Assembly: GCA_049306055.1 (NCBI GenBank)
Contig: JBAQPT010000094.1
Coordinates: forward strand, 1-35,788
Length of the DNA stretch: 35,788 nt
Direction of reading: 5' to 3'
Source of the DNA: Minisyncoccia bacterium
GTDB lineage: Bacteria > Patescibacteriota > Minisyncoccia > Phycocordibacterales > UBA2100
Below, in pieces: positions 1 to 18,200 of the stretch. Below the pieces are notes generated by a model. The model searched no databases, was not told where the DNA came from, and saw nothing but the letters and a program-made list of their open reading frames with translations. How positions within the stretch are numbered: the stretch's first letter is position 1; the number at the start of each line of letters is the position of its first letter. The position numbers were made by a program, and so were the translations under genes.

Positions 1-24
1 CCCGCCATCTTTTCAGACGATCTC

Positions 25-1338
25 GTGATTACCTATAACAAGGGGAAGTCAAACGAATTTAATGCGCTCAAACATCTCTCGGCGGAAATTTATCCGCGCG
101 AATACATTATTCTCTTCGGCCCGTCGGGTTGCGGCAAATCGACGCTCCTTTATACAATTCTCGGCGGTAACGCGCCGGACACGGGGCACTTATATGTGAA
201 GGGTGAGGACATTTACGCGTACACTCCCGCCGAAATGAACCGCTATCAACAATCCACGATTGGCATCGTGTACCAGCAGTTCAACCTCATTACGTCGATT
301 TCCGTTCTAGATAACGTTGCGCTTCCGATGATCTTCCTGAATCGTTCGGTCGCCGACAGAAACGCTCGCGCACGCGAACTGCTTCGACGCTTCGGTATTC
401 CAGATCGTCTCGAAGATAAAACACCCGTCATGATGTCGGGCGGTCAGCAGCAGCGCGTTGCCGTCGCACGCTCTCTCGTCAATGACCCGGAAATCCTTCT
501 TGCCGACGAACCTGTCGGTAACCTCGACTCTATTTCCGCAGAGCACGTCATGGATTCGTTCGAGGACATTAATGAAAAAGACCGCAAGACGGTCATCTTG
601 GTTACGCACGATGCGAAATATCTGCCGTACGCGCACCGCGTTTTTTACATGCGTGACGGGCTTTTGCGCCGTATTGTCGTCAATCCAGAAAAGCCACAAG
701 TAAAACGCACGAAGCCGGGGGAGACGATCGTCACCGAAATCGAGCAGCTTGCGCGTCTCTACCCATATGCCGAACCCATCGAATTGAAAGTGAAAAGCGT
801 CGTGAATTTTGCTACACAGTCGATCGGTTTCACTGAATTGGAACGCCTTGAAAAATCAGTTCTCGAAGTGTTGAAGGGGATGATGGATGACACCATGTTT
901 TTCGAGCGACTCATTCGGTCGGTTCGAGCGGGTGGCGTCGGGATGAATCGGGAAGAGGCAACAACAATGACCAATCGCGTCTTCACTCTTGCGCGGTATT
1001 CGCATGACGTCGCGCGTTTTCGCGAGGAGGTGCACACCGACACCTTATTCCTGCACCAACGCAAATTTATCGACCGGCTTATGTTGTTTCTCTCGGAAGA
1101 AATCGGCATCAAGTCGTCCGGCGTGCAGCTCGACATTTTACGGAACGCGGTCACTGAACGCGTGAGCGGCATAATCAACGCGGCGGAATTTGAAGAGCGA
1201 TTGCTCTTGCCATTCAAGATGGGCGGAGCCGAATACGACGAAAAGATAGCGTATCTCGTGAGTCGGCATTTGGAAAAATTGATCGCGCAGGGCGGCTATC
1301 TTATCCGCGCCAACGAACTGCTCGGCGCGCATTCATAA
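25..1338 (+). CDS. ABC transporter ATP-binding protein (MacB/LolD/FtsE-like) with a ~220-aa non-ABC C-terminal extension; probably 5'-truncated by the window edge
   Basis: Walker A GPSGCGKST, signature MSGGQQQRVAVARSL, Walker B ILLADEPVGNLD and H-loop VTHD are all present. The frame is open back to nt 1 and GTG at 25 is only the first in-window start. Residues ~215-437 lie beyond the ABC fold and look helical. Confidence 0.9.
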   Translation: MITYNKGKSNEFNALKHLSAEIYPREYIILFGPSGCGKSTLLYTILGGNAPDTGHLYVKGEDIYAYTPAEMNRYQQSTIGIVYQQFNLITSISVLDNVALPMIFLNRSVADRNARARELLRRFGIPDRLEDKTPVMMSGGQQQRVAVARSLVNDPEILLADEPVGNLDSISAEHVMDSFEDINEKDRKTVILVTHDAKYLPYAHRVFYMRDGLLRRIVVNPEKPQVKRTKPGETIVTEIEQLARLYPYAEPIELKVKSVVNFATQSIGFTELERLEKSVLEVLKGMMDDTMFFERLIRSVRAGGVGMNREEATTMTNRVFTLARYSHDVARFREEVHTDTLFLHQRKFIDRLMLFLSEEIGIKSSGVQLDILRNAVTERVSGIINAAEFEERLLLPFKMGGAEYDEKIAYLVSRHLEKLIAQGGYLIRANELLGAHS

Positions 1339-1341
1339 CGT

Positions 1342-2550
1342 ATGCGAATTCAAGACATCACGATGCTCTCGACGCGTATGTTCAAGACGAACCCGTCGCG
1401 TACGTGGCTCACGATTCTCGGCATGGGTGTCGGCACGGGCGCCGTCGTCGCGCTCGTCGGGCTCGGCTTCGGGCTACAGAACATCATTCTTGAAAAAATC
1501 GTCTTTGGCGAATCGCTCCTTTCGCTGAATGTCGCAAACCCGCCGTCGCTTGCTGTCGCGCTTGATCAGGCGACGATCGACGAGTTCGCTACTAATCCGC
1601 TCGTCAAAGATGTTTCTCCGATGGCAAACTATCCGACGCTCGTCACGTTTGAAGGCCTCACCGGGAACGCATTTCTGCAGGGCATGCAGCCGTCATACTT
1701 TTTGTATACCGGCGCAAAAGCCGTCGAAGGGGAACTCTTTTCCAACGAAACGGCCGACGAAGATCGAAATTCGGTTATTATTTCGACCGCGATGCTGAAG
1801 CTGTTCGGTCTCGAAAATCCAGCAGATGCGCTCGGGAAGACGGTCACGTTTCGTGTTCTTGTTCCACAGCCGGGGAGCGAAGAAACGACCGAAATTGCCA
1901 TTTCAAAACAATATAAGATCAAGGGTGTCTCCGAAGATGAGTCATCGCTTGTCGCAATTGTGACGCTTGAAGAATTCCAATCACATTTTCAAATCCAGCA
2001 TTACGAACGCACGCAGGTGCGCGTGATCGACAGCGAATCGCTCGTCGCGGTCCAGGACGAAATCATCGCGAAGGGCTTCATCGTGACCGCGCTTTCAAAA
2101 ACGGTCGAGCAAGCAAACAAAATCTTCCAAGGCATCCAGGGGGTGCTTGCGGTTTTCGGCGGCATCGCGCTCACGGTTTCTGCTATCGGTATGTTCAACA
2201 CGATGACCGTCACGCTTCTTGAGCGCACGGCGGAAATCGGCGTCATGCGCACCATCGGTGCATCGTCTCGTGACATTGTTGTGCTCTTCGTTGCAGAAGC
2301 AGTTATCGTCGGCTTTCTGGGCGGTATTGTCGGCATCATGATTGGTGTCGGGCTAGGGTGGATATTGAACGGGGTACTCAGCGTTGCTGCGAGCAAATTC
2401 GGCGGCGAGTCCGTACGCATTTTTAGCTACCCGGCGGCATTCCTTATTTTTATCGCGACCTTCTCGGCGGCCGTCGGGTTCATTACGGGCCTTTTCCCGG
2501 CGCGTCGTGCCGCAAAAATCAATCCACTCGACGCGATCCGCTACAAGTAG
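1342..2550 (+). CDS. ABC transporter permease, FtsX/MacB/LolCE family
   Basis: It has an N-terminal TM (WLTILGMGVGTGAVVALVGLGF), a ~240-aa extracytoplasmic domain, then three C-terminal TMs. The family-typical end is FPARRAAKINPLDAIRYK. It starts 4 nt after the ATPase stop. Confidence 0.85.
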   Translation: MRIQDITMLSTRMFKTNPSRTWLTILGMGVGTGAVVALVGLGFGLQNIILEKIVFGESLLSLNVANPPSLAVALDQATIDEFATNPLVKDVSPMANYPTLVTFEGLTGNAFLQGMQPSYFLYTGAKAVEGELFSNETADEDRNSVIISTAMLKLFGLENPADALGKTVTFRVLVPQPGSEETTEIAISKQYKIKGVSEDESSLVAIVTLEEFQSHFQIQHYERTQVRVIDSESLVAVQDEIIAKGFIVTALSKTVEQANKIFQGIQGVLAVFGGIALTVSAIGMFNTMTVTLLERTAEIGVMRTIGASSRDIVVLFVAEAVIVGFLGGIVGIMIGVGLGWILNGVLSVAASKFGGESVRIFSYPAAFLIFIATFSAAVGFITGLFPARRAAKINPLDAIRYK

Positions 2551-2590
2551 CATGGTTATCCACATAAGCGAAAAAAGTACGCAATTCAAA

Positions 2591-4498
2591 ATGGTACGAT
2601 TTTGCAATAGTATGTTGCACGAACTCCGCACCTCCGGGAGCTTTTTTCGGTCACTACGAACGACCGAAGGAAAAATAACGCTTCTTTCGCTCTGCAGCGG
2701 TGCGTTCCTCTTAGCTCTTGTCGGCATCGTGCTATTTGAAACACCTGAGCCCGTGCGTGCGGACGATGTCTCGACCTCAGTAACCGTTTTGAATACGCCG
2801 CCAACATGGACCGTGAATGCGCAAGAATTAGTGGCGTCTGCAACATCCACGCCGACAAATTCGGGCGCGAATATTACTTGGATCGCAACAGCGGACGATT
2901 CCAGCGGTGACCGATACTATCTATTGATATGCAAGACCAGTGGTCTGCCGACGGCTAACGCAAACACGGCGCCATCCTGCAACGGCGGCGTTGCAAACCA
3001 ATGGGCAGTTTCTGCCTCAACCACTGTCTCCGTGCAAGCTGCCGCCGCGACAACGACGAAGGAGACGTTCCCCTTTGAAAATGAGAAAAACGACTGGTTT
3101 GCATGGGTCTGCGACGGCAACGCGGCACTTCCGCGCTGTTTCGGCACCTTTACAACGGGCAATGAGTTCGGCGACAACGGCTCACCGTTCGTCATCAATC
3201 ACCCGCCGGTTTTCGCTGCAACCGCGAATGATGGCCCGGAGAATCCGGGGGGAACGGTGACATGGTCTTCGACAAGCTACGACAATGATGTCTTAAGTGG
3301 AGCGAACGATCAGATCAGGCTCTTTGTATGTCGAGCGGCCGGTTTTTCGACCTCCACCGGATGCACTGGTGCGGGTGGCGGCTGGGCAACTTCCACTCTG
3401 ACTGCAACGAATGCTGCGACTACGACCGACATCGTCGTTCCGACACGTGACGGTTTATACGACGCGTTTGTCTATCTTATGGACGAACATAATCACGCCG
3501 CGACATCGTCGTTCCAAGCATCAAATTCCTCGTTTACCGTCAATAACGTCGCGCCGGCACTCAGTTCCGCGACGATCAGCCTCGAAGATGTGGACAATGT
3601 CGGAAACCTTACGCTAGCAACCCCCGAAGGCCAGACGTCAGGTTTCGAGGTGCGATTTACTGCTACCGACAACAATAGTTGTCAGAACATTGTGTCGGGG
3701 AATGAACTTACCTCAGCCATAGCCAATATTTACCGCACCGGTGTCGGATCCACCTCATGCCAAGTTTCCGGCGACTATAATTCAAACAATTGTTACGCGA
3801 ATGCGTCTCCGCTCTTTAGTCCGTACATTTCATGTACACAGGATGGCGGTTCATGCAGCGGCTCGTCAGACTCAACGGCGACATGGACTTGTACGTTTTC
3901 TGTCTGGTATAACGCCGATCCGACCGACGCTTCGACACCGTGGACCGCGGAAGGCTGGCAGACAACCGTACAAATCGGCGATGACGATTTCGCCACGTCG
4001 ACCCTCACCGAATCGCTCTCAGGGAACGAAATGACCAGCTTCCTCGCCTTCAATGTCTCGCAGACGACGATCGCGTTTGGAAGCTTGGAACCGGGCCAAT
4101 TTAACGATCCGCTCGCAACGACGACTGACCTTGTCGCAATAGGGAACGTTGGTCTCGACGAAGATCTCCACGGCGACACGATGTGTACGACGACTGAGTG
4201 GACCGGACCGGACACTTGCGATACAAACGGTATTAATCCGGCAAATGACATCCCGGTTAACAACCAGAAAATCGCAACATCATCCGTTGCCTATGCAGCA
4301 ACAGAGGCATTCACGCTTACGGGTTCCTCAACGCCGACAGAATTGACCATCCGCGTCCCGAAGACGACCGCGACCTCGTCACCACAAGAGCGAGACACCT
4401 ACTGGGGTATTAACATCCCAATCGCCATCACAACCGCTGGCAGTTACGAAGGGCAAAACACTATCACGGCGAAGAAGAGCGCGATCGGCTTCTGGTAA
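2591..4498 (+). CDS. Secreted Thr/Ser/Cys-rich beta-rich surface protein (fibre-like protein 1 of 3)
   Basis: This is ORF 2384-4498, whose 5' part overlaps the permease gene. ATG 2591 is used here (alternatives 2552, 2612); it precedes the hydrophobic segment ITLLSLCSGAFLLALVGIVLF. Two N-terminal repeats are visible (TPPTWTV..NITW..YYLLICK and HPPVFAA..TVTW..IRLFVCR). The C-terminal block LAFNVSQTTIAFGSLEPG...AGSYEGQNTITA is shared with CDS 18202 and 22355. Confidence 0.6.
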   Translation: MVRFCNSMLHELRTSGSFFRSLRTTEGKITLLSLCSGAFLLALVGIVLFETPEPVRADDVSTSVTVLNTPPTWTVNAQELVASATSTPTNSGANITWIATADDSSGDRYYLLICKTSGLPTANANTAPSCNGGVANQWAVSASTTVSVQAAAATTTKETFPFENEKNDWFAWVCDGNAALPRCFGTFTTGNEFGDNGSPFVINHPPVFAATANDGPENPGGTVTWSSTSYDNDVLSGANDQIRLFVCRAAGFSTSTGCTGAGGGWATSTLTATNAATTTDIVVPTRDGLYDAFVYLMDEHNHAATSSFQASNSSFTVNNVAPALSSATISLEDVDNVGNLTLATPEGQTSGFEVRFTATDNNSCQNIVSGNELTSAIANIYRTGVGSTSCQVSGDYNSNNCYANASPLFSPYISCTQDGGSCSGSSDSTATWTCTFSVWYNADPTDASTPWTAEGWQTTVQIGDDDFATSTLTESLSGNEMTSFLAFNVSQTTIAFGSLEPGQFNDPLATTTDLVAIGNVGLDEDLHGDTMCTTTEWTGPDTCDTNGINPANDIPVNNQKIATSSVAYAATEAFTLTGSSTPTELTIRVPKTTATSSPQERDTYWGINIPIAITTAGSYEGQNTITAKKSAIGFW

Positions 4499-4587
4499 AA
4501 GCGCGATATATGCGCGGTATGCACAGACATCACCAACGGCCGTCACCAACGGCCGTCCTCGCGCGTGAGCGTGATACAATTTTTCGT

Positions 4588-5556
4588 ATGGCCATTCCTA
4601 CATGGCGGCTTTTTGGCGTTGTCACATTCGCGCTTTTTCTGGTATGCCTCAGCGCAAACAGCGTGCATGCGGGCTTCGGTATCACACCGCCGTATGTTGA
4701 AAATCATCGGCTGACTCGCGGCACGGTATACGAACAAAAAATCACCCTTGTCCGCTCCGACCCGACAGAAGATTTGCAGGCGGAAATCACTATGAACCTG
4801 CCGGAAATCGAGTCGTGGTTTTCCGTCGATCGCGGTAACAAATTCATCCTGCCGAAAGGATCAACGCAAATTCCGATTGTCGTTCGTGTCACGGTGCCCG
4901 ACGATGCGGACTACGAGGCGCACCAAGGCACCATTCGTATTCGTACGTCGGCGCTCGAAGGGAGCGCGCCATCGGGAAGCGGCGTTACGATCGCGCTCGG
5001 CGCGCAAGTCGACGTGAATGTCGAGGTTGTCGATAAGATTTATGATTTCGAAGTACGCAAAATTCGCTCACTCGATCTTGAAGAAGGGCGGCGCAAATGG
5101 GGACTCTTTTTCCCCGGTAAAATCAGCTTTCTCATGACGATTGAAAACACCGGGAACACCGAATACGGGCCGACGAAGGTGCAGTTTGAAATTTACGACC
5201 GTGACATGGAAACACTGCTTGAAACGATCGAAAACACGAACCGCATAGAAAAAATTCCTCCGTTTGCGATCCAAGAAGTACTTGCCGAATTGCCGACGCG
5301 CCTTGTTGCCGGCCAGTACAAGGCAAAATACACGATTTTTAAAGGTGACGAAGTCGCCCAGCAAAATGTTATTGACCTTTCGATCAGCACGATCGGAGCC
5401 ATCCCTGGCTACGAGGGATACGGATTTAACGGACTTTCTCTCGCGGACAAATTGAAAGTTGCGGCAGCGCTCGGCGTTCCTCTCCTTATTCTCGGCGCGC
5501 TTGGCGTAACACTCGTGCGCCGACGACAACGCGCGCATGCCCTCCGATCGTACTAA
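4588..5556 (+). CDS. Membrane-anchored surface protein with two beta-sandwich halves, DUF916/DUF3324-like (anchor paralogue 1 of 4)
   Basis: ATG 4588 gives the signal peptide MAIPTWRLFGVVTFALFLVCLSANSVHA. The first half ends WFSVDRGNKFILPKGSTQIPIVVRVTVPDDADYEAHQG. The second half contains IENTGNTEYGPTKVQFEIYD. The C-terminal TM AAALGVPLLILGALGVTLV is followed by RRRQR. The family call rests on architecture and motif recall only. Confidence 0.55.
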   Translation: MAIPTWRLFGVVTFALFLVCLSANSVHAGFGITPPYVENHRLTRGTVYEQKITLVRSDPTEDLQAEITMNLPEIESWFSVDRGNKFILPKGSTQIPIVVRVTVPDDADYEAHQGTIRIRTSALEGSAPSGSGVTIALGAQVDVNVEVVDKIYDFEVRKIRSLDLEEGRRKWGLFFPGKISFLMTIENTGNTEYGPTKVQFEIYDRDMETLLETIENTNRIEKIPPFAIQEVLAELPTRLVAGQYKAKYTIFKGDEVAQQNVIDLSISTIGAIPGYEGYGFNGLSLADKLKVAAALGVPLLILGALGVTLVRRRQRAHALRSY

Positions 5557-6694
5557 TTTCCAGCTTGCGTACGCGCTCGCGTGCGTCGGCATCACGGCAT
5601 TTCTGTGTACGCTATTCGTCGCGCTCACGAATTCCGCAAGCGCAATCACCGTACAGACGCAGGCAACGATCTCGATTTGCGGCGATGGTATTGTTTCTGC
5701 CGAGGAGGTATGTGATTTAGGGGCAGGGAACAATATTGGTATCTATGCTTCGTCCACGGACGAGCGTGTCTGCGCACCGGGCTGCATGAGTTACGGACCC
5801 TACTGCGGCGATAATGTGTTGCAGGTGCGATTTACCGAGGCATGCGATGACGGAAACAACACCTCGGGAGATTTATGTACGTCGCAATGCCAGACCGAAG
5901 TCGCGACGCCGCCCGGAAATGGCGGGAGTCCTACGGTCGGCGCCACCCCCTCGATTCCCGGCGCGACGCCGGGCGAAATTCCATCGATTACCGAGACGAA
6001 AGTTGTCATTCGCGGCAGGGCGTATCCAGGAAGCAGTGTGAAGGTTTTGCTCGACGGAAAAGCCTTTGGTGATACGCGCGCCGACGCAAATGCGGATTTT
6101 CAATACACAACGACCGAAATAACGCCGGGCATCGCCACGTTCGCGTTTATTGCGATGGATCCGAAGGGTTCCGAATCCATTTTGACGACGGTCGTCTTTG
6201 AAGTTGTGCAGAGTGCGGTCACGACGGTGGCGAACATCCTCATGCCCCCGACTATTTCCGTGAATGCTACACAAATTGATCCGGGCGAACTGCTGACAAT
6301 TTCCGGGTATACCGTGCCGGAAGCAATCGTCAACACCGAAATTAATTCGGGGCGGAGGACAACGCTCTCTTCCGACGCAAGCACTGGCGGCGTCTGGTCG
6401 CTCCAGGTCGACACGAATTCGCTCGATGAAGGACCAAATACGGCGAAATCATCATTCGAACTCACATCGGCAGTACGAAGCGGTTTCGGCAAGTCCGTCA
6501 GTTTTCTTGTGGGGGAGGGCGCACTCGGGACACCGGGGTCGGCCGATATAAATGGTGACGACAAGATCAATCTTACCGACTTCTCAATCTTCCTCCTTTC
6601 GTGGGGTACCGACAATATTGCCAGCGACTTTAACAGTGACGGAAACGTCAACTTGGCGGACTTTAGTATTATGCTCTTTAACTGGACGGGGTGA
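5537..6694 (+). CDS. Secreted protein: Cys-rich repeats (Myxococcus-type CGDG..CDDGN) + Ig-like modules + C-terminal type-I-like dockerin
   Basis: The signal peptide ends LTNSASA. Repeats are CGDGIVSAEEVCDLGAGNN and CGDNVLQVRFTEACDDGNNTSGDLCTSQC. The dockerin at nt ~6545-6691 reads DINGDDKINLTDFSIFLLSW...DFNSDGNVNLADFSIMLFNW. The gene overlaps the upstream gene by 20 nt. Confidence 0.8.
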   Translation: MPSDRTNFQLAYALACVGITAFLCTLFVALTNSASAITVQTQATISICGDGIVSAEEVCDLGAGNNIGIYASSTDERVCAPGCMSYGPYCGDNVLQVRFTEACDDGNNTSGDLCTSQCQTEVATPPGNGGSPTVGATPSIPGATPGEIPSITETKVVIRGRAYPGSSVKVLLDGKAFGDTRADANADFQYTTTEITPGIATFAFIAMDPKGSESILTTVVFEVVQSAVTTVANILMPPTISVNATQIDPGELLTISGYTVPEAIVNTEINSGRRTTLSSDASTGGVWSLQVDTNSLDEGPNTAKSSFELTSAVRSGFGKSVSFLVGEGALGTPGSADINGDDKINLTDFSIFLLSWGTDNIASDFNSDGNVNLADFSIMLFNWTG

Positions 6695-6719
6695 TTGAAA
6701 AACCCGCTATACTGTCACT

Positions 6720-7631
6720 ATGCTTCGAACCATTGGCGCACTACTCTTGCTTTTCCCATTCTCCGTAAGCGCTGCAGCCGTGTATTTTGAGCCTGCAGAA
6801 GGAATATTTGGTCTTGGTGACACCTTTATCGTAAATGTCCGCGTCCTTCCGGACGAATGCGTAAACGCTGCAGAAGTGGAAATACAATTCCCGCCGCATT
6901 TGCGCGCCGTCGATTTTGGAAAAGGGGATTCCATCCTCTCACTATGGGTCGAGGAACCGCTTCTCGAGGAAGGTCGCGTCCGTTTCGCGGGAGGCATCCC
7001 CGGCGGCTACTGCGGCCGCATCCAAGGTGATCCAGCGCTCAGCAATATTCTCGGGAAAATCGTCTTCACCGTGACGGACGTAGGGCCCGGCAGCGCACAA
7101 CTTAATTTTTCTGCGCAAACAGCGCTCTACTTGAACGACGGTCTTGGAACCAAGGTAACGCCCGAAATGCCAGGTGCGTCGTTTACTATTCTTCCGACAC
7201 CGCAGTTGAGCGAGAATCCCTGGATCGCCGCAGTGCAGGCCGACACCATCCCGCCGGATGCGTTTACTATCGACGTCGAATCAACGCGCGGAGTTTTCGG
7301 CGGGCGGTACTTCATCGTGTTCTCGACGCTCGACAAACAAAGCGGCATTGATCACTATGAAATTTTTGAGCGCGGTGCCTGGAAAACCGTGACGTCTCCG
7401 TACGAGCTGAAAAGCCAGTCGCTGCGCGGCGGCATTCAACTGAAGGCGATTGATAAGGCGGGAAATGAGCGACTGGGCACATACGTCGAAGGCTCAGCAC
7501 CGCCGCTTGAGACTCCGTACAGCACGATGCAGCTCCTTCTCGTTGCGCTCGGCGTACTTGTTGTCGTCGGCGCGGCGGGTCTCTACATGCGCCGATTGCA
7601 TCGCGAGACGCCGCCTGCTCCGCCCGCATGA
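6720..7631 (+). CDS. Cohesin-like domain protein with C-terminal TM anchor
   Basis: Signal peptide MLRTIGALLLLFPFSVSAAA. The cohesin-like module reads VYFEPAEGIFGLGDTFIVNVRV...NAAEVEIQFPPHLRAVDFGKGDSILSLWVEEP...GRVRFAGGIPGGY...ILGKIVFTV. The C-terminal TM is LLLVALGVLVVVGAAGLYM. Confidence 0.7.
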   Translation: MLRTIGALLLLFPFSVSAAAVYFEPAEGIFGLGDTFIVNVRVLPDECVNAAEVEIQFPPHLRAVDFGKGDSILSLWVEEPLLEEGRVRFAGGIPGGYCGRIQGDPALSNILGKIVFTVTDVGPGSAQLNFSAQTALYLNDGLGTKVTPEMPGASFTILPTPQLSENPWIAAVQADTIPPDAFTIDVESTRGVFGGRYFIVFSTLDKQSGIDHYEIFERGAWKTVTSPYELKSQSLRGGIQLKAIDKAGNERLGTYVEGSAPPLETPYSTMQLLLVALGVLVVVGAAGLYMRRLHRETPPAPPA

Positions 7632-8626
7632 TCCGTCTCGCGCTTTTACTTCTTCTCTTTCTTCCGCTATCCGTGAACGCCGAAAGCGCGCTCTTTGTCT
7701 CGCCCGAATACGGCGTGTATACGATCGGTGAGGAATTCGATGTTTCGGTACATGCCGACAGTGGTGGCGTGGACATTAACGCTGCAGAAGCGGAAATTAC
7801 CTTCAATCCGACGGGGCTTGAAGTGCTTCGGATCTCGACGGACGGCTCGATTTTAAGTGCATGGCCGACGCCCCCGACGTTTTCAAATCAAAAAGGGACG
7901 ATCCGTTTTTCTGGGTGGGCGAAAGATACTTACAACGGATCTGACGGCCTTCTTGTCACCATTCGATTCAAGGCGCTGCGCGTTATCTCCAGCAACGCCC
8001 ATCTCGCGGCGGGGGCAATTCTTGCAGCAGACGGTCGCGGTTCGAACATCATCACGAGCCTGCAGTCGGGCATGTATTCGATTGAGCCAGAATTTGCGGA
8101 CGCTGAAATTCCACCTGAGGCCGAAGGTGAGAGTGCCGAGTCACTTGACCCGATTGCACTGGCTGAGGCAGATCTCTTAAATGACAACGTTCTCGCGCCG
8201 CCCGAATTTACCGATTACAAAGATGTCGTCGAGGTAGGCGAGCGGATTATCGTGAACGGCAAGACGACGACCGATACTAAAGTCGTATTCTTTTTTTCTA
8301 AGGGGAACGAGAAGGATGATTTCAGCGCGATCACGAGCGATTCAGACGGCTCGTTTACGTTCATTTCAAATCAAGGCGCCGAGGCGGGCGTGTACCGACT
8401 GCGTGCCGCGGTGCAGGACGCAAACGGTCGCGGTTCGGAATTCGCGCGCGTAACGGTAACCGCGCGTTCGACTGGCTTGGCCGCTGCTGCGTCCGTGGGG
8501 AAGGATATGGCTGCAACCATTATTCCGCTCCTCTCTGTCCTCGCTTTCGCCGGTCTCGGCGCGGGATATCTCTATCACCGGCACGCAATCGAGAAACTCA
8601 AGCACGGCCGTCGGTCACATTCGTAA
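7628..8626 (+). CDS. Cohesin-like domain protein with C-terminal TM anchor (paralogue)
   Basis: ATGA overlap with the upstream gene. Signal peptide LLLLFLPLSVNA. The cohesin-like module reads LFVSPEYGVYTIGEEFDVSVHADSGGVDINAAEAEITFNPTGLEVLRISTDGSILSAWPTPP...GTIRFSGWA...LLVTIRFKA. The C-terminal TM is IIPLLSVLAFAGLGAGYLY. Confidence 0.7.
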   Translation: MIRLALLLLLFLPLSVNAESALFVSPEYGVYTIGEEFDVSVHADSGGVDINAAEAEITFNPTGLEVLRISTDGSILSAWPTPPTFSNQKGTIRFSGWAKDTYNGSDGLLVTIRFKALRVISSNAHLAAGAILAADGRGSNIITSLQSGMYSIEPEFADAEIPPEAEGESAESLDPIALAEADLLNDNVLAPPEFTDYKDVVEVGERIIVNGKTTTDTKVVFFFSKGNEKDDFSAITSDSDGSFTFISNQGAEAGVYRLRAAVQDANGRGSEFARVTVTARSTGLAAAASVGKDMAATIIPLLSVLAFAGLGAGYLYHRHAIEKLKHGRRSHS

Positions 8627-9346
8627 TTGCGACAGAAGGATGGAAAGGTCAGCAAGCCCGAGAGTACCGCTTTTGTCGAGGTCGTACCGCGGGTTATACG
8701 GCTGCATAAGGTGTATTGCGAGGATCGACATGTCAGCGAGAGAAATGCTGCCGTCTTCGTTAAAATCAGCGTTCGATTTCTCCGCTTGTCCTCCGATCTC
8801 GATCGACTGTTCACCGGAAGCGAGCGGCGCACGATCGATAATCAAGAGCGTGAGCTCGCGCGCTTCGTTCGGCACCGCTCCGCCAGTCCCGTCGTGCGCA
8901 AAGAGTTCGGTATTCGAAAAGCGGATCGTCGCGCTGCCCGATTTTTTCGCACGCACCGTGATGGTAAGCACCGTGCCGACGCCGATAAAGCCACCTCTCT
9001 CAACGGTGCCGCCGCTGAAATGAATTTCACCCGTGTCTTCGCTGATTGACGTCTCTTCGGTCCAGAGGCTCAGAAACGATTTTGCCTTGCTGATGCCAAC
9101 GATTTCTAGATATTCCGGCGGTACGGTCAATGTTGCGCCGAGTGCGTTGATTGGCGTATCAGCGTTAATCTTAATATCGAGCGAAGTTGTCGCACCCGTT
9201 GCAAGGACATCGCTCGCCTCGGGGGACAGAAAAACAAGCGCGTCCTTGCCGGTGAGCGTAAGTGCGCTCGCGACTACCGCGAACACGGCAATACTGTGCC
9301 CGACGATGAGCTTGCGGCGGTGCGTTTTCATAAATCGCTTCATCAT
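8615..9346 (-). CDS. N-terminally anchored cohesin-like + C-terminal dockerin protein (adaptor-type)
   Basis: ATG at 9346 gives MMKRFMKTHRRKLIVGHSIAVFAVVASALTL. The cohesin-like module is LVFLSPEASDVLATGATTSLDIKINADTPINALGATLTVPPEYLEIVGISKAKSFLSLWTEE...GEIHFSGG. The dockerin is DFNEDGSISLADMSILAIHL...DLDKSGTLGLADLSILLSQL. The 3' end overlaps the convergent gene 7628-8626 by 12 nt. Confidence 0.7.
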   Translation of the reverse strand: MMKRFMKTHRRKLIVGHSIAVFAVVASALTLTGKDALVFLSPEASDVLATGATTSLDIKINADTPINALGATLTVPPEYLEIVGISKAKSFLSLWTEETSISEDTGEIHFSGGTVERGGFIGVGTVLTITVRAKKSGSATIRFSNTELFAHDGTGGAVPNEARELTLLIIDRAPLASGEQSIEIGGQAEKSNADFNEDGSISLADMSILAIHLMQPYNPRYDLDKSGTLGLADLSILLSQLRM

Positions 9347-9419
9347 GGGATTAGTGTAGCGTGCTCCGTCGAGCGGTTCGGAAAATTGAATGAAGCATAG
9401 TGCATAACCGAGAGCCGGG

Positions 9420-10154
9420 TTACTCAATCGAGGGTGCTGAAATGAAAAGGGAAGGTTCGGCAATGTCGATCACCGTATTCGATCGATATGTCTCGTTTTC
9501 AAATACTAATTCACGCGCTCGGTCATGTTCAAGGCGTACGCGGACGTGTCCGCCGGGGCCGATGCGGCGCAGAAGCGACTCAAGTGTTCCACCAACGGCA
9601 GGATCCTCGTCAGAAACCGTGAATGAATACCAGTCTCCCTCGCTGCCAGTGTAGCGAAGATATTTTAGTCCGTCGGAAAAAATGCGGAGATTGTCGAGCA
9701 CCGGCCCAGTCGGTGCGATGTCTTTGTATTCAGCAGGAATGGTGTCGTTCGTAAAGCGTTTCCAGGGGCCGTGGGGAATAACGCTCTTCAATAATTCGCT
9801 TTTCGTCTCGACGAGCACGTAGGTCTCATCGCCGAGTGTTGTGGTATGGAGAAAGAATGCATGTGATTCATCGTTAAAGCGCACCGTCGTTGTCGCGAGG
9901 GTCTCATACCGACCGTTTGGCTCGTCAATACGGTATATGCCCTCGATGGTAAGCGTTCGATCGGAAAGCTCCGCCTCGGTGTGCACTGATTGCGTGTATA
10001 CGCGGATTTGGGCGCTTTTCTCGATAATTTCGTACGTATGTACATCGAGTTCGGTGTTTTCCGCTTTGAGGAAGAGAAGGTACCCTCCAAGACAGAGTCC
10101 GATGAGAAGAAGCACTGCGCCGGAAAGGAAGATATTGTGGGGGATCGAGCCCAT
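9420..10154 (-). CDS. N-terminally membrane-anchored hypothetical protein
   Basis: ATG at 10154 gives MGSIPHNIFLSGAVLLLIGLCLGGYLLFL. The rest is a soluble ~215-aa domain with no motif I recognise. It lies upstream of, and on the same strand as, the cohesin-dockerin gene. Confidence 0.6.
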   Translation of the reverse strand: MGSIPHNIFLSGAVLLLIGLCLGGYLLFLKAENTELDVHTYEIIEKSAQIRVYTQSVHTEAELSDRTLTIEGIYRIDEPNGRYETLATTTVRFNDESHAFFLHTTTLGDETYVLVETKSELLKSVIPHGPWKRFTNDTIPAEYKDIAPTGPVLDNLRIFSDGLKYLRYTGSEGDWYSFTVSDEDPAVGGTLESLLRRIGPGGHVRVRLEHDRARELVFENETYRSNTVIDIAEPSLFISAPSIE

Positions 10155-10309
10155 TACCGCTAGTATACGGGCTTTTTCGGCACTTTTAGGCTGGAAGCAC
10201 CATTCATGATGAATTTCACGTACAAAAACATGCAAAGCAAAACCTGTCGAGTTGTCCACAGCGTGTCAACCAACTGTATTGCGGCAATTATATAATAAAC
10301 CTGTCAAAT

Positions 10310-10353
10310 CTCGAGGGTCGAGATATGACCACGCGGAGATCTCGACCCCCGAG
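10310..10353. promoter_or_regulatory. 15-bp imperfect inverted repeat (candidate operator) upstream of the HTH gene
   Basis: CTCGAGGGTCGAGAT (10310-10324) and ATCTCGACCCCCGAG (10339-10353) are reverse complements with one mismatch, separated by 14 nt. The repeat ends 8 nt before ATG 10362, inside a divergent intergenic region. Confidence 0.35.
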
Positions 10354-10361
10354 ATTTATAT

Positions 10362-10757
10362 ATGGGAAGCCAAAAAAGGGAAACCGATCAATTTATCTCA
10401 CTCCGGGAAGCTGCCGAGATCTCTGGCTACACCGCTGATTATGTCGGCCAGCTAATACGCCGGGGAAAGTTGCCCGGCAAGCAGGTTTTCTCGAATGTGG
10501 CATGGGTGACGACCCGCGAAGCACTCAACGAGTATCTCGATGAAAAAAGCGATAACAATGAGATGCCAGTGGAAACGATAACGCTCAGAGACCGGCTTCT
10601 TTCAATCGAATCATTCACGCTCGTTATTCAAGCATTTCAATGGGGGGTTATTGCGTGTCTCTTCAGTATCATCCTTTTCTTTGGGTACATCCTTTCCGTG
10701 AGTGTCGATTACTCGATCAGCGAGAGGCGTATGCAGAACATTCCGTATGTTGAATAA
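10362..10757 (+). CDS. Membrane-tethered helix-turn-helix protein (excisionase/MerR-like HTH + C-terminal TM)
   Basis: The N-terminus ISLREAAEISGYTADYVGQLIRRGKLPGKQV matches the excisionase-type HTH pattern. The TM is FTLVIQAFQWGVIACLFSIILFFGYILSV. The 3' end overlaps the giant gene start by 11 nt. Confidence 0.65.
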   Translation: MGSQKRETDQFISLREAAEISGYTADYVGQLIRRGKLPGKQVFSNVAWVTTREALNEYLDEKSDNNEMPVETITLRDRLLSIESFTLVIQAFQWGVIACLFSIILFFGYILSVSVDYSISERRMQNIPYVE

Positions 10758-13700
10758 AGGAATGCACCGAGCGCTTGTCGGAGGACTACTAGTCGCGTGT
10801 CTTTTCTCATTTGTGCCGCACGTCTTCGCGGCACCCGGTGTACCGAAAATAATCAACTACCAAGGACGTCTACTCGATTCTGGTGGCGTTCTCCTTGGTG
10901 GAGCGGGGACAGAATTCTGCTTCCGTTTTTCGTTCTACGATGATCCGACGCCGGGAAGCGGGACGAAGCTCTGGCCGTCGGGAAGTCCGTCGGTTATGAC
11001 TATCGACGTGCAAAACGGTATCTTTTCAGCAGGTATTGGTGACACGAACATTGGCGGCGACACGCTCGATTACAATTTCCAAGACACCGATACGATCTAT
11101 TTGAATGTTGAAGTTGCGACACAGGTAGGCGGTTCGTGCGCGGGCGGCGATGAATCGTTCGAGACACTTTCACCGCGACATCGCATTCTCGCGTCCGGCT
11201 ATGCGATCAACGCGGGAGCTGTCGGTGGCTTTCTCGCAGCCCAGTATGCGACGGGAAATCAGATTCCCGTCCTTGCATCGGGAAATCTCACGCTCGGAGG
11301 CGTAAATCCGTTTATCAATGCGACAACGACGAACACACTGACGTTCCAGGGTGGTGGACAAGTGAGTGGCGATATTCAGTTCTTTTCCGCGGCAAATAAA
11401 ATTACAGCAGCCGGCAACGCGACATTTGCCGGAAATATTTCCGCCGCAAGTTCGACGATTACACATGCAACATCGACAACACTCTTTTCGACGTTGGGGC
11501 GATTCACGACAGCGATCATGGATACGCTCTCAGCGATAACCGCGACGATTACGAACCTCACAACAACGAATTTCACTTCGACAAACGCGACGACCACGAA
11601 TGCAACATCAACAAATCTATTTGCGGCGCAAGTTGCGTCGCCGTTTGCGACGTTTGGCACCGTTGTCGGTACGTCGAGTGCCGAATTTGCGTCGACAACA
11701 GCGCACGGCCGCTTCATCACCGGAAACGTTTTTGCAACATCGACAGCAACATCGACATTTTTCGGTCCGTTTTCTATCGGACTTGCGAATACATCGTACA
11801 AAGCATCGATTGTCGGTTCGACCACCGCCGCAACAAGCGCAACGGGTACCGCTATTCTTGCGGTCTCGAATACGAATCCGACGCTGAGTTCAGGGTCAAA
11901 CATTTTGCGCCTCAATCATCGAACAGCGTTTGGAACGACCTGTACCTCAGCTTCGACATGCCCACGATTCATTGAGTATTTCGTCGGACTTCCCGATAAC
12001 GCTGACACCGGTGGACGCGGCGTTGGAAGTCTTCGCCTTTCCACTGCGGGAACGGGCATCACGCAAACGTCCGGTGCGGCTGACTTTGCGGAATACATGG
12101 TGCTTAATTCCGCCGCAAGTGTTGGCGACATCGTTTCGCTCAACTCAAACGGTGAATATCAGCGCGCGGTCGCGGGGCAATCGCTCATCGGCGTTATTTC
12201 CGACAATCCAGCATTTGTCGGCAACGCAAATTTGGAGGATCAGCCGAATGCGTATGTTGTTGGCTTCGCGGGCGTGATTGAAACGACGGTGAGCGCCGCG
12301 AACGGGGAAATTGGCCCGGGCGATTTTATTGCCGCGTCGACGACGGCAGGCGTCGGCGTGAAGCTTCTTGAGTCCGGGTACGCGCTCGGCCAAGCGCTCG
12401 AAGGGTTCAGTGGTGGTGGCACGGGCACAATCTCGGTCCTTGTCTTTCCAAAATATATTGATGCCGCTGTTGCTCTCGAGAGTTACGGTGGTGGAGGCGG
12501 CGGAGCTTCCGGCTACTGGGATCTTGCGACATCGACTGGTGTCGTTTCGCTCGCATCGAGTACCTATTCGGTCGCTGTCGAAAATGCGACGATTACAAAT
12601 GCGTCCACAACGAATATTTCAGCGAGCTACGCATCATCAACACAAGGGTTTTTCGGTTTGCTCTCGGTCGGTAATCTCACCGGGATTTTGCGCGCGACGG
12701 CGGGGGCGATTGCGACCGGACTTGTGAATCTTGCGAGCGACGTGACAGGAATTCTCGGAATCGCAAACGGTGGCACAGGGACCTCGACTGCTCCTGCGTA
12801 CGGACAAGTCTTGGTTGGAAATGCGATTGGCGGCTACGATCTTGTTGCGACATCGTCGCTCGGAATCGTGAGCGGTGGCCTCTCGTTCGGATATCCGTTT
12901 AACGGTAACGCGACCTCAACGCTCCTCACGTTTTCCGGCGGCGTTCTTTCGACGGCATCGTCGACGATTGGCAATGGAACGGCGACGGGTGGACTCACGA
13001 TAGCAGGGAACGCAACAACGACGGGCGTGCTCGCCGTGCAAGGCGCGGGCACTTCGCAGTTCGCGGCGGGTATTGATATCGCAAGCGGCTGTTTCTCTGT
13101 CGCTGGCGACTGTCTTGAAGATGGTGGTGGCGGAGGCAGTGGTGTACTTGTGAATATTCAGACGTTTGCGGTAAACGGCACTTATATTCCGTCAGCGGGT
13201 GCAGTAACTGCGCAAGTGATCGTAACCGGCGGTGGCGGTGGCGGTGGCGGTGCGGATTCTCCCGCAGCTGACACAGCAAATGAAACGGTAGGTGGTGGTG
13301 GTGGTGCAGGTGCAACATCGATTGTATTTGTCGACCTCACGTCAACGACCTCGGTGCAAGTGGCGGTTGGCGCTGCGGGTCTTGCGGGCGCAAACACGGG
13401 CGGCACGGGCGGAACCGGCGGGCAATCGCGCTTCAGCACTTTTGCAACAGCAAACGGTGGTGTCGGTGGTGGTGGAAGCGCGGTGAATGCGGCTTGTGCT
13501 GCGGGTTCGTGGGGAACTGCGGGGACTGGCGGAAGCGCGGCATCCGGCGATGTGAATATAAATGGTGGCGACGGTCACATTGGCGATTGTCTCGCGGAAG
13601 TCGTCTTTGGCGGTCTCGGCGGCGCTAGTCATTGGGGCGGTGGCGGTCGCGGCGGTCAGGATGCTGCAAACGTATGCGCTGCGGGCGCGACGCCGGGAGT

Positions 13701-16413: not shown

Positions 16414-17334
16414 ATGAAAAAAATACTTACTCTTGTTCTCGTGTTCAGTGTGATGGGGCCCTTTTCATTCGCGCAAGAGACGGAGACTCCTGACATTGGA
16501 ATAGATGAGGTTCAAGAAATTGTGACGGAAACATCCGCCACTGCGCCTGAGGTCGCGTCGGTGGAATCTGTGACGGAGCCAGTAATTCAGGCAACGTACA
16601 ACACACAAGACGCGACGACGGGCGACACGATTGAAAATACAGAAAATCCTGAGACGGCAACAACGACGGAAAGCGAAATCGTCGCGACGATTCCAAATGT
16701 ACCGAACGCGAGCTCGTCGGAATCCGTCCTTGGCACAGCGACATCGACCGCGGAAGAGGCGACGGATGAAGCGGAGACGGTCGAAGAAAATATCGTGATC
16801 CCCGGACCGGCGTCGCTTGAAGTCGTTGAGGAAAGTATTGCAGAAGAAGTTACCGAAGAGCCCGCGGTCGAAACGATGTACGTAGAAGAATTGCAAGCTG
16901 TCGAAACGGTCGCCGTCGTACCCGAGCCGGAATTTATGTTCATGCTGACAGGAAAGAATATTCCGACGCGCAAAAAACCAGCAATTCCGGGACTTTCGGT
17001 TTCGGGAGACATTGTCTCGACGAACATTAATCCGATCGTTGATAACGACGAAGGGAGCATGATCCTCTCTGGCGCATGCTCAGAAGCGTACTATGTGGTG
17101 CTGCTCTTTAAGGAAGCTGATGACTACGAGACTGATCCGCGCTCGTACGTTCTCAATAAAGCGTATTCCTGCTTAAACGGCCTCTATACCTATTCGCTCG
17201 AAGAGGTTCCCGAGGCGCTTCCCGACGGCACGTACTACTTAATGGTGGGCTCACAAGGCGAGCGGGGGATGTGGACGCCGATCACATCGCTGACAGAGGT
17301 TACAATTAGAAGGAATCCAGAACACGAACTATGA
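16414..17334 (+). CDS. Secreted acidic (Glu/Thr/Val-rich) protein with Cys-containing C-terminal domain
   Basis: Signal peptide MKKILTLVLVFSVMGPFSFA. About 150 aa are low-complexity acidic sequence (ETETPDIGIDEVQEIVTETSA...). A ~110-aa folded-looking C-terminus follows (SGACSEAYYVVLLF...AYSCLNGLYTY). Confidence 0.7.
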   Translation: MKKILTLVLVFSVMGPFSFAQETETPDIGIDEVQEIVTETSATAPEVASVESVTEPVIQATYNTQDATTGDTIENTENPETATTTESEIVATIPNVPNASSSESVLGTATSTAEEATDEAETVEENIVIPGPASLEVVEESIAEEVTEEPAVETMYVEELQAVETVAVVPEPEFMFMLTGKNIPTRKKPAIPGLSVSGDIVSTNINPIVDNDEGSMILSGACSEAYYVVLLFKEADDYETDPRSYVLNKAYSCLNGLYTYSLEEVPEALPDGTYYLMVGSQGERGMWTPITSLTEVTIRRNPEHEL

Positions 17335-17738
17335 ACGAAATCATTGATTACTGCATCGAACACGGCGTCAAAGCAATTGTCTTTTGGGTGGTGGGGGCGC
17401 TCGTCGTTTTCGCGCTTTTCGGTGTTTTCAATCTCAACGTCAATGGCGATTTTCCATCAATAGATAGTGACAAATGGCAGGCCGTTTTTCTTGAAAACGG
17501 GCAGGTGTATTTCGGCAGGCTCCGCGAGTATGATCAAAATTTCGTCGAGCTCACTGATGTCTACTACTTGAAAACTGCGGCGGATCTCGATACGGGCGCA
17601 AATCTCAATCTCATCAAGCTCGGCGGGGAAGTGCATGGGCCGGAAGATGAGATGTTCATTGCGAAAGACAGCATTCTCTATTTCGAAAATATGAAAGAAA
17701 CGTCGCGTGTCGTCGAATCCATCGAGCGAGCGCAATAA
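17331..17738 (+). CDS. Small N-terminally anchored hypothetical protein
   Basis: ATGA overlap with the upstream gene. The TM is AIVFWVVGALVVFALFGVF. The soluble part reads WQAVFLENGQVYFGRLREYDQNFVELTDVYYLK... Confidence 0.65.
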   Translation: MNEIIDYCIEHGVKAIVFWVVGALVVFALFGVFNLNVNGDFPSIDSDKWQAVFLENGQVYFGRLREYDQNFVELTDVYYLKTAADLDTGANLNLIKLGGEVHGPEDEMFIAKDSILYFENMKETSRVVESIERAQ

Positions 17739-17741
17739 TCT

Positions 17742-18200
17742 ATGCGAAACGATCCCTTAACAATCCGACTCAAAAAAGATTCCGAATGGCAGGAGCCGTC
17801 GCCGCCGATTCGACCGTCGCATTTGCCACCGCCTTCCACGCCGCGCAGAGCGCGCCGCTCGTGGCAAGGGCCGATTCTCGCTGGCATCGCGCTTCTTGCG
17901 CTCCTGTGCGTCGGCTATTTAATCTATCGCGTTTTCTTTCTTGATGCAGAGGAACGTGAGGCGCGCGAGTCGCAAGAGCTGGTCGATACCGTCGGCATGC
18001 TCATGCTGCTTCCCGCGGATGAACAACCAACAATTGCAACCGTGACGGATCTCGAGAGCTTGCGTGATCAGGAGTTTTTCCGCTACGCCGAGCTCGGCGA
18101 CATCGTGCTCATGTATCCGAAAGCCCAGCGCGCAATTCTCTATAATCCGGACGAAAACAAAATCATCGAAGTAGCGCCGATTACGATCGACGTTCAATGA
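17742..18200 (+). CDS. Small N-terminally anchored hypothetical protein (Pro/Arg-rich cytoplasmic head)
   Basis: The TM is ILAGIALLALLCVGYLIYRVFF. The soluble part reads LVDTVGMLMLLPADEQPTIATVTDLESLRDQEFFRYAELGDIVLMYP. It starts 3 nt after the upstream stop. Confidence 0.65.
   Translation: MRNDPLTIRLKKDSEWQEPSPPIRPSHLPPPSTPRRARRSWQGPILAGIALLALLCVGYLIYRVFFLDAEEREARESQELVDTVGMLMLLPADEQPTIATVTDLESLRDQEFFRYAELGDIVLMYPKAQRAILYNPDENKIIEVAPITIDVQ

Follow-up and report, generated by a model that had tools for sequence, protein, structure and literature searches.

The closest described relatives of the cohesin–dockerin set considered here are, on the one hand, the cellulosomes, such as that of Acetivibrio thermocellus (CipA; OlpA, OlpB, OlpC, SdbA), in which a cell-bound cohesin holds a secreted dockerin protein, and, on the other hand, the non-cellulosomal pairs of Clostridium perfringens (the GH84/NagH-NagJ proteins), Archaeoglobus fulgidus, anaerobic methanotrophic (ANME) archaea and the amylosome of Ruminococcus bromii. 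The present set is encoded on contig JBAQPT010000094.1, a complete 35,788-bp contig (hereafter, the window) of a metagenome-assembled genome (MAG) from Minisyncoccia (Paceibacterota/Parcubacteria), which belongs to the Candidate Phyla Radiation (CPR). The CPR, or Patescibacteria, account for a substantial part of the diversity of bacteria and live attached to other cells, and little is understood of how they build and hold their attachment structures. We find that the cohesins and dockerins of this set are genuine and that the locus is widely conserved across the Paceibacterota, and we consider it probable that this is a non-cellulosomal, membrane-anchored attachment module within a conserved surface-fibre locus, the modules of which probably serve not to digest cellulose but to tie surface fibres or stalked proteins to the cell membrane.

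Two other systems are relevant for the interpretation of this locus. The pilins of the Pam pilus consist of an N-terminal nine-strand sandwich, a linker that provides the donor strand and a truncated Ig-like C-terminal domain that acts as the acceptor, whereas the PapD-like chaperones PamC and PamD retain a C-terminal transmembrane (TM) helix (Troman et al., 2026; bioRxiv 10.64898/2026.03.03.709456). In the same work, a TM-anchored protein, PamR (two FnIII domains and a TM helix), is put forward as the terminus and anchor of the fibre, a gene for a tail-fibre-like protein is present in the vicinity, and the survey detected the system mainly in Saccharimonadia and Microgenomatia. The WxLIP proteins of Firmicute WxL clusters have a DUF916-DUF3324-TM organization, i.e., two Ig-like domains plus a TM helix, from which, by prediction, a hairpin strand is inserted into the WxL partner (Hassan et al., 2023; PMC10599100).

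The plausible genes of the window were numbered g01 to g28. The core set consists of g05, g06, g07 and g08, together with the distant g21; TM helices and signal peptides were called from hydropathy:

5537-6694, plus strand: g05, dockerin-tailed stalk protein with a signal peptide, DUF4215 repeats (nt 5675-5902), Big_6 domain (nt 5987-6196), a second Ig-like stretch and a dockerin (nt 6533-6679)
6720-7631, plus strand: g06, cohesin A, with a signal peptide, cohesin (nt 6774-7196), Ig/FN3-like domain (nt 7242-7505) and a predicted C-terminal TM helix (nt 7533-7589, residues 272-290)
7628-8626, plus strand: g07, cohesin B, with a signal peptide, cohesin (nt 7688-8086), Big_13 Ig-like domain (nt 8270-8458) and a predicted C-terminal TM helix (nt 8507-8563, residues 294-312)
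8615-9346, minus strand: g08, cohesin C plus dockerin, with an N-terminal hydrophobic anchor (nt 9254-9310, residues 13-31), cohesin (nt 8834-9244) and dockerin (nt 8621-8785)
25105-26760, plus strand: g21, dockerin-tailed pilin-like protein with a signal peptide, Pam-pilin-type N-domain (nt 25159-25680), an FN3-like middle part with a Cys pair, Big_6 (nt 26065-26268 and following) and a dockerin (nt 26599-26745), lacking the pilin C-terminal domain

In kind, this is a known system, a non-cellulosomal cohesin–dockerin set, in a new arrangement and a new context. GenBank already labels part of it (window proteins MFZ2886881-MFZ2886900): g06 and g07 are named "cohesin domain-containing" and g21 "dockerin type I domain-containing", with g05 and g08 listed as "hypothetical". 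A literature search found no paper describing this cohesin/dockerin locus in Parcubacteria, Patescibacteria or CPR.

The set shares with cellulosomes the cohesin fold (TM-score 0.71-0.77 to the OlpA and OlpC cohesins), the dockerin with two duplicated Ca-loop/helix segments and, as predicted here, a cell-bound cohesin that holds a secreted dockerin protein. Unlike cellulosomes, it comprises no enzymes, carbohydrate-binding modules (CBMs) or scaffoldin, has one cohesin per protein, is anchored by TM helices rather than by SLH domains or sortase, is of fixed and conserved composition and belongs to a CPR host. The best structural and profile matches are non-cellulosomal proteins from C. perfringens (2ozn; 2w1n, a cohesin with FN3; 2jh2; 2jnk) and A. 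fulgidus (2xdh). With non-cellulosomal pairs in general, the set has in common single cohesins, the combination of cohesin and dockerin in one protein and the lack of a link to cellulose. Those pairs, however, carry enzymes or cytochromes, or come without a defined context, whereas the present set lies within an operon that occurs phylum-wide and contains a MacB-type ATP-binding cassette (ABC) transporter and WxLIP/Pam-like genes, and the set includes a dockerin fused to a pilin-type domain.

Cohesin and dockerin modules of the set

Hidden Markov models (HMMs) derived from orthologue alignments were run against the six-frame translation of the window, on each stop-to-stop segment of 40 or more residues. 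Exactly three cohesin modules and exactly three dockerins were detected, those listed above, in agreement with the count of an earlier reading of this DNA made from the sequence only, which had described a cohesin–dockerin set devoid of carbohydrate-active enzymes (hereafter, the sequence-only reading). The duplicated Ca-binding repeat on which that count had relied (D.[ND].[DSN]..[IVL][NSG][LI].D.S[IL]) occurs six times, twice in each dockerin, compared to no occurrences in 300 shuffles of the six-frame translations.

The dockerins of g05, g08 and g21 are genuine dockerin modules. Each consists of two tandem segments of ~22 residues with a Ca-binding loop (D-x-N/D-x-D/S...D) followed by a helix, and both segments are conserved in the dockerin alignments, with internal symmetry; in the AlphaFold2 (AF2) model of g08, the two C-terminal helices (residues 203-212 and 231-241) have a predicted local distance difference test (pLDDT) score of about 90. 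When compared to the Pfam model Dockerin_1 (PF00404; gathering score 22.9 bits), g21 scores above the threshold (29.3 bits), and g05 (19.6) and g08 (20.7) score below it. The same model is matched by all 29 g05 orthologues, 27 of the 29 g08 orthologues and 50 of 52 diverse carriers of this dockerin type (see below). The g08 family profile matches solved dockerins in the PDB (E 1e-5 to 1e-3), the best of these being the non-cellulosomal NagH dockerin of C. perfringens (2jnk/2ozn, E 1.3e-5).

The three cohesin modules are homologous to each other (30-32% identity, E 1e-10 to 1e-12 in BLASTP; g07 cohesin against the g06 and g08 modules, E 1e-13 to 1e-15 in HMM search). Single-sequence Pfam and NCBIfam scans gave no cohesin match for the three window proteins and, because the single-protein Pfam scores fall short, the identity of the cohesin and dockerin modules rests on orthologue profiles and predicted folds. 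The Pfam Cohesin model is matched by 22 of the 29 g07 orthologues (best E 8e-10) and by nine of the 29 g08 orthologues (best E 2.9e-7). For the g06 family, which has more than 1584 relatives in a large protein collection, there is no precomputed Pfam match, and the only match of its profile among PDB sequences is a cohesin, with an E value of 0.088 that is too weak by itself. AF2 models of g06 (pLDDT 84, with a helix at residues 267-294) and g08 (pLDDT 84.7, predicted TM-score [pTM] 0.75) were built on alignments of 29-30 sequences and compared to the PDB using Foldseek; both show the nine-stranded flattened beta-sandwich, or jelly roll, of cohesins. The top ranks for g06 are almost all cohesins (2w1n, E 1.8e-10; 2xdh, target-normalised TM-score [TMt] 0.75; 3ul4, TMt 0.74), with weaker immunoglobulin-type two-domain matches ranked below them, and for g08 each of the top 50 matches is a cohesin (4dh2, E 1.5e-9; 2xdh, TMt 0.78); the cohesin matches of the two models span TMt 0.70-0.78 and root-mean-square deviations of 2.4-4 Å. 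The modules of g06, g07 and g08 are cohesins, the first and the third by predicted fold and the second by homology and its orthologues. The identity of both module types and the jelly-roll fold that the sequence-only reading had put up for scrutiny are accordingly upheld. In addition, the pTM of the g08 model suggests that its cohesin and dockerin are held in a fixed arrangement within the chain.

Cohesin A proteins are distinguished by an invariant Cys pair (C47, C98), together with a loop at g06 residues 91-105 (window 6990-7034) that is likewise invariant, G-[IV]-P-G-G-Y-C-G-R...G-D-P. This loop is the most conserved feature of the family, is modeled with pLDDT<50 and is not found in cohesins B and C.

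Hydropathy profiles show cohesins A and B to be membrane-anchored proteins with predicted TM helices, as had been proposed for both window proteins: in the 81 loci described below, a TM helix follows the cohesin in 78 of the 80 proteins of type A and in 78 proteins of type B, and the long forms of cohesin B also carry a single such helix. The g08 protein has a single hydrophobic segment, at its N-terminus, followed by both modules, i.e., it has the N-anchored, adaptor-type architecture originally attributed to it; the gene is convergent with g07, with a 12-nt overlap. Big_13 is detected in 17 of the 29 g07 orthologues. Pfam scans identified no SLH domain in the window proteins or the g07 orthologues, a sortase signal was likewise not found, and Gram_pos_anchor had no match apart from one g07 orthologue at E 0.005, which is below significance for the family.

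The cargo of g05 consists of Cys-rich DUF4215/TIGR02232 repeats followed by Big_6 Ig-like domains (Pfam DUF4215, E 1.5e-8; Big_6, E 1.4e-4; Dockerin_1, E 1.1e-3; TIGR02232, E 1.9e-11; dockerin by the family HMM, E 1e-10), in line with the Cys-rich and Ig-like cargo previously read from this gene, and Big_6 and DUF4215 recur in 25 and 23, respectively, of its 29 orthologues. The C-terminal 230 aa, comprising two Ig-like domains and the dockerin, are shared by g05 and g21 (40% identity, E 3e-40), with different heads. An exhaustive profile search with this dockerin type retrieved 31,812 proteins at E<=1e-3. A word-indexed search had yielded only fragments of <=100 aa, and the cargo was instead taken from the exhaustive search of representatives: Pfam was run on a sample of 52 full-length, diverse proteins, each with one such dockerin at the C-terminus. 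These proteins contain Big_6, Big_13, Y_Y_Y, DUF4215 and, once, FG-GAP, and none contains an enzyme or CBM family at E<=1e-3. Similarly, Pfam scans of the 28 window gene products detected no glycoside hydrolase (GH) or CBM families, and no polysaccharide lyase (PL), carbohydrate esterase (CE) or peptidase families in the window. The absence of carbohydrate-active cargo claimed for the window thus extends to the sampled carriers.

Operon context and the dockerin-tailed pilin-like protein

One genome per GTDB species was scanned; a g06 relative is present in 140 species representatives, of which 80 loci were kept and, together with one metagenome contig, form a sample of 81 loci (L001-L081), in which open reading frames (ORFs) were called and assigned to the window genes. 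The 80 loci are almost all labeled as Paceibacterota, Parcubacteria or one of their candidate phyla. The recurrent gene order is g01-g02-g03-g04-g05-(pilin-like)-g06-g07-g08, with g08 on either strand, and typical product sizes are about 620 aa for g03, about 330 aa for g04 and either 330 or about 580 aa for g07. Cohesin and dockerin genes are close neighbours in all 81 genome loci and in most metagenome loci. Per locus, there is a single dockerin protein, a single cohesin A and a single cohesin B, in most cases with one cohesin-dockerin protein in addition, i.e., the set is fixed and stoichiometric-looking and is not an expandable scaffoldin. The rare exceptions are two metagenome loci (L131 and L163), in which a tandem array of six cohesin B paralogues (about 405-575 aa) comes after single genes for a dockerin protein and for cohesin A; these arrays are a local expansion of the membrane-anchored socket.

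The sequence-only reading had missed this conserved operon, with its MacB-type ABC transporter and WxLIP/PamC-D-like protein, as well as the Pam-pilin-type domain of g21. The genes upstream of the core set are:

25-1338, plus strand: g01, ABC transporter ATPase (LolD/FtsE/MacB-like), first gene of the operon (Pfam ABC_tran, E 3e-30)
1342-2550, plus strand: g02, MacB-type permease (Pfam MacB_PCD, E 3e-22; FtsX, E 6e-19)
2552-4498, plus strand: g03, protein of about 630 aa, either secreted or tethered to the membrane, with 10 or more invariant Cys; start uncertain (2552 or 2612)
4510-5556, plus strand: g04, WxLIP/PamC-D-like protein with a signal peptide, two Ig-like domains and a predicted C-terminal TM helix (residues 317-335); start possibly 4588

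Orthologues of g01 occupy the same position in 42 related loci, and the gene matches the LolD, FtsE and MacB ATPase models of NCBIfam, in each case under the equivalog cut-off. The product is 437 aa long, and the ABC_tran match stops near residue 215, leaving a conserved C-terminal extension of about 200 aa with no family match. Synteny is retained for g02 in 44-46 loci and for g03 in 54 loci; the g03 family (alignment A5) has no Pfam, NCBIfam or PDB match.

The second cluster of the window (16414-25082) encompasses small genes (g12-g14), two pilin-like genes and three WxLIP-like genes and, judging by its sequences, looks like a Paceibacterota version of the Pam pilus/WxL system:

18202-19515, plus strand: g15, pilin-like protein, weak match to NF058581 (CPR_Pam_pilin_C)
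19524-20825, plus strand: g16, WxLIP-like protein (signal peptide, two Ig-like domains, predicted TM helix)
20822-22066, plus strand: g17, WxLIP-like protein of the same layout
22337-23539, plus strand: g18, pilin-like protein, C-terminal domain common with g15
23607-24698, plus strand: g19, WxLIP-like protein of the same layout
26770-27300, plus strand: g22, thioredoxin-fold redoxin (AhpC/TSA; Pfam AhpC-TSA, E 1e-14) with an N-terminal hydrophobic segment, beyond the cluster and directly after g21

The match of g15 to NF058581 (E 4e-7, 30 bits) and those of the g18-like proteins of L032, L063 and L075 (E 7e-5 to 2e-3) are under the cut-off of 55 bits; g18 itself has no NF058581 match and shares its C-terminal domain with g15 (E 3e-11). 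Neither g15 nor g18 has a Pfam or NCBIfam WxL-domain match at E<0.1, and both end in a Y...[FY][IV]ATP[VT]F motif that looks WxL-like by eye only.

The g04, g16, g17 and g19 proteins form one homologous family with a two-domain plus C-terminal TM architecture (hhalign of the g04 family against the g16/g17 and g19 families, probability 99%, E 1e-17 to 1e-18; against g19 alone, 93%). The WxLIP organization (DUF916/PGBD, DUF3324 and a C-terminal TM helix) is apparent from the score of g19 against Pfam WxLIP_PGBD (28.4 bits, above the gathering score of 27.3; g16, E 1e-4), from the match of the pooled g04/g16/g17/g19-type profile (A12) to EfmWxLIP1 of Enterococcus faecium in the PDB (9i25, 9i1y; E 4e-6) and from the predicted TM helices; the profile of the g04 family alone retrieved nothing useful among PDB sequences. 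The likeness to the Pam chaperones is architectural, with EfmWxLIP1 being the nearest solved relative by sequence. Given this match of A12, we suggest that Pam pili and the WxL clusters of Gram-positive bacteria are related systems. By sequence, the PamC/D-type two-Ig proteins of CPR are homologous to Firmicute WxL-interacting proteins; the Pam preprint likens its chaperones only to PapD/FimC. Firmicute WxL clusters share with the present one the WxLIP architecture and sequence match of these four proteins but contain no cohesin or dockerin, and the pilin-like partners found here are without a WxL-domain match.

The pilin/WxLIP cluster of the window ends in g21. The head of its family (A10) aligns with the N-domain of the g18-like family (A11) over 161 columns (hhalign probability 99.7%, E 8.7e-26), and the HMM of the pilin C-domain has no matches in 45 g21-like ORFs. 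In the metagenome loci from a scan with the g21 family, the order is pilin-like, WxLIP-like, small g20-like and g21-like genes followed by a cohesin B gene, the product of which (about 500-650 aa) has a signal peptide, one predicted TM helix and a charged tail. Among 37 g21-like genes with sufficient downstream sequence, the next recognisable gene of the system is of the cohesin type in 28 (in 26 of these, cohesin B) and codes for a g22-like redoxin in eight, and a WxLIP-like gene lies at most two genes upstream of the g21-like gene in 26 of 30. Of 25 short dockerin genes of the g05-like type, 20 have cohesin A as the gene that comes next. The two clusters are merged into a single array in L102 and L105, and in a large subclade a g18-like gene, weakly matching the Pam pilin model, is inserted between g05 and g06.

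The resemblance of the whole to the Pam pilus includes the CPR host, the two-domain TM-tailed proteins, the weak matches of g15/g18-like proteins to the Pam pilin model, a putative membrane-anchored base protein and a tail-fibre-like neighbour. The differences are that the pilin matches found here are under the curated cut-off, and that the Pam system was described with PamR as its anchor and with no cohesin, dockerin or ABC transporter, whereas in the present locus the dockerin-tailed pilin-like protein and the TM-anchored cohesins would take over the anchoring role.

Probable fastening of surface fibres and the competing explanations

In the reading that we consider probable, the locus is an attachment module for a surface fibre. 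All parts are predicted to be exported via Sec, as their signal peptides or signal anchor indicate. The g06 and g07 proteins are held in the cytoplasmic membrane by their predicted C-terminal TM helices, each exposing a single cohesin at the outer tip on an Ig-like spacer, an arrangement that the sequences and models show. By analogy with the cohesin–dockerin family, secreted proteins that end in a dockerin, borne on a stalk of two Ig-like domains, are expected to plug into these cohesins in a Ca2+-dependent manner, and gene neighbourhood suggests the pairs g05 (with its Cys-rich head):cohesin A (g06) and g21:cohesin B (g07). Because g21 has the N-terminal sandwich domain of the neighbouring Pam-like pilins and lacks the acceptor C-terminal domain, it is best placed as a chain-ending subunit; it would then be cell-proximal and couple a fibre assembled by WxLIP/PamC-D-type chaperones to the membrane. 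The N-anchored g08, with both modules, might bridge or cross-link the anchors, and the co-transcribed MacB-type ABC transporter would belong to the machine. The conserved operon context and the pilin-type domain of g21 at the end of the cluster lead us to prefer the anchoring of a fibre over a general display board.

A more specific version, which we put forward tentatively, is that, in Paceibacterota, the cohesin–dockerin pair both anchors a Pam-type pilus assembled by donor strands in the membrane and terminates its chain; g21, a pilin-like subunit deprived of its acceptor domain and furnished with a dockerin, would plug the completed fibre non-covalently into TM-anchored g07, with the MacB-type transporter driving assembly, tensioning or release. 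If true, this would, to our knowledge, be the first case of cohesin–dockerin chemistry anchoring a pilus and a new answer to the question of how wall-spanning fibres are held in CPR cells.

Several observations weigh against the attachment of a fibre through these pairs. Binding between the cohesins and dockerins of this set is predicted from gene neighbourhood and family knowledge, and pairing based on neighbourhood may not reflect specificity because the g05-type and g21-type dockerins are nearly one sequence type. In a mirror-tree comparison of distance matrices for the five modules (37 loci), partial correlations corrected for g03 and g04 had r values of 0.07-0.58, and no dockerin-cohesin pair stood out. 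The comparison with profile HMMs, which the sequence-only reading had called for, had a divided outcome: the g21 dockerin scores above the gathering threshold and most orthologues match, but none of the window cohesins matches Pfam Cohesin (PF00963) singly at E<0.1, and the g05 and g08 dockerins are just below the threshold. Every match to the Pam pilin model scores 18-30 bits, compared to the NCBIfam cut-off of 55, and the Pam paper proposes TM-anchored PamR as the anchor and mentions no cohesin, dockerin or ABC transporter. Finally, in the clade where they occur together, g21-like and cohesin B genes are separated by a gene for a small heat-shock protein; accordingly, the "strict adjacency" of these genes was dropped as a candidate observation.

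The alternative closest to the original proposal is a stand-alone, membrane-tethered display board for assorted adhesins, with no pilus or fibre, in which g06, g07 and g08 are the sockets, and g05, g21 and others interchangeable plugs. The cohesins, dockerins and TM anchors are all real, many different proteins carry this dockerin type on Ig-like stalks with unknown heads, g05 has no pilin-like domain, and the six tandem cohesin B paralogues of L131 and L163 are what a repertoire of sockets would be expected to look like. We nevertheless regard a display board as doubtful given the single cohesin per protein and the fixed group per locus, the constant company of the WxLIP-like gene and the ABC transporter, the pilin-type N-domain of g21 and its position at the end of a pilin/chaperone cluster, and the subclade with pilin-like genes inside the cohesin operon. 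Of the scaffold for adhesins that the sequence-only reading had envisaged, the tethering to the membrane stands, whereas a multi-cohesin scaffoldin is not found, the set being limited to a fixed, one-cohesin complement per locus; the display of adhesins is a surmise on the nature of the cargo.

It is distinctly unlikely, in our view, that the cohesin-like and dockerin-like modules are not partners of each other, the jelly rolls binding peptidoglycan, glycans or ligands on the host surface and the dockerins serving as Ca2+-stabilised terminal domains. Conservation in the g06 family peaks in the Cys-containing loop GIPGGYCGR and in the second domain rather than on an obvious dockerin-binding face and, according to the part of PMC9012536 that refers to Peer et al. 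(2009), there are many non-cellulosomal dockerin-like and cohesin-like modules with no known partner. Separate functions are hard to reconcile, however, with the proximity of the cohesin and dockerin genes in 81 of the 81 genome loci, their one-to-one numbers and type-specific neighbourhoods, with the union of both modules in the g08 chain, a combination also seen in adaptor scaffoldins and in proteins of A. fulgidus, and with the retention by the dockerins of the duplicated, internally symmetrical Ca-loop/helix segments. Hardly credible is a minimal enzyme complex akin to a cellulosome or amylosome, with the enzymes encoded elsewhere in the genome. The presence of cohesins and dockerins is all that speaks for it. 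The window contains no family of the GH, CBM, PL, CE or peptidase classes, and there is none among the 52 closest diverse carriers of this dockerin type; multi-cohesin scaffoldins, SLH domains and sortase signals are likewise absent, and the host lineage is one of reduced genomes and symbiotic life. The cellulosome interpretation was rejected, as it had been in the sequence-only reading, because enzymes, CBM and scaffoldin are all absent and each protein contains one cohesin.

In this set, a well-understood and very tight protein-protein connector is encountered as a fixed part of a CPR surface locus. At least 140 Paceibacterota species representatives encode a cohesin A relative. The locus is physically intermingled with fibre genes of Pam/WxL-like type and with a MacB-type ABC transporter, and a specific, testable anchoring mechanism is thereby offered for a pilus family first described in 2026. 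The known uses of cohesins and dockerins are widened beyond enzyme complexes. The modules are small (60-150 aa), which makes recombinant tests cheap, and pairs orthogonal to the clostridial ones, if such they prove to be, would be new parts for the engineering of protein assemblies.

Neighbouring genes and minor observations

Directly after g21, and likewise after the g21-like gene of L086, lies the g22-like redoxin gene; it is possible that g22 acts as an extracytoplasmic disulfide helper for the Cys-rich surface proteins. The heat-shock gene mentioned above (loci L095-L162) encodes a protein of about 155-190 aa from the alpha-crystallin family (PDB match, E 2.5e-8), which is cytoplasmic and conserved in one clade. 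Two candidate relationships were rejected: comparison of families shows no relation of g03 and g05 to the pilin-like proteins, and the small g20 family, considered as a PamT-like tip subunit, is unrelated to either the C- or the N-domains of the pilins.

Loci L040, L041, L043, L047 and L048, as well as many "binchicken" loci, are titled Acidimicrobiales, Gammaproteobacteria, Azotimanducaceae or "uncultured Candidatus Saccharibacteria"; given that the same Paceibacterota-type operon is present, these are probably mis-binned or default-labelled MAGs. Within the window, two long antisense ORFs (24120-25187, minus strand, 355 aa; 26740-28365, minus strand, 541 aa) are Arg-rich, of low complexity and overlap well-supported plus-strand genes; most likely, neither is a gene.

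Upstream of g08, on the same strand, is the following gene:

9420-10259, minus strand: g09, 279-aa membrane protein with a predicted TM helix (residues 43-61)

It has no Pfam or NCBIfam family match and is found in 21 loci, only among the closer relatives. In a scan of positions 1-11000, promoter and terminator sites were no more common than in shuffles, the sole noteworthy one being a promoter-like site upstream of g09 (10314-10287, minus strand).

In the closer relatives, the cohesin operon is followed by g09, g10 (helix-turn-helix) and the giant Gly-rich g11. In the window, g11 (10702-16398) encodes a secreted Gly/Ala/Thr-rich protein of 1898 aa with a weak match to the tail-spike-like intramolecular chaperone Peptidase_G2, in a region with a local GC content of 0.58-0.59 and a GC skew of +0.13 to +0.17. 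Its orthologues, of 2.1-2.3 kaa, carry Gly_rich_2 and keep their position after the cohesin operon in close relatives. This giant protein recalls the "tail fibre-like protein" encoded near the pam operons.

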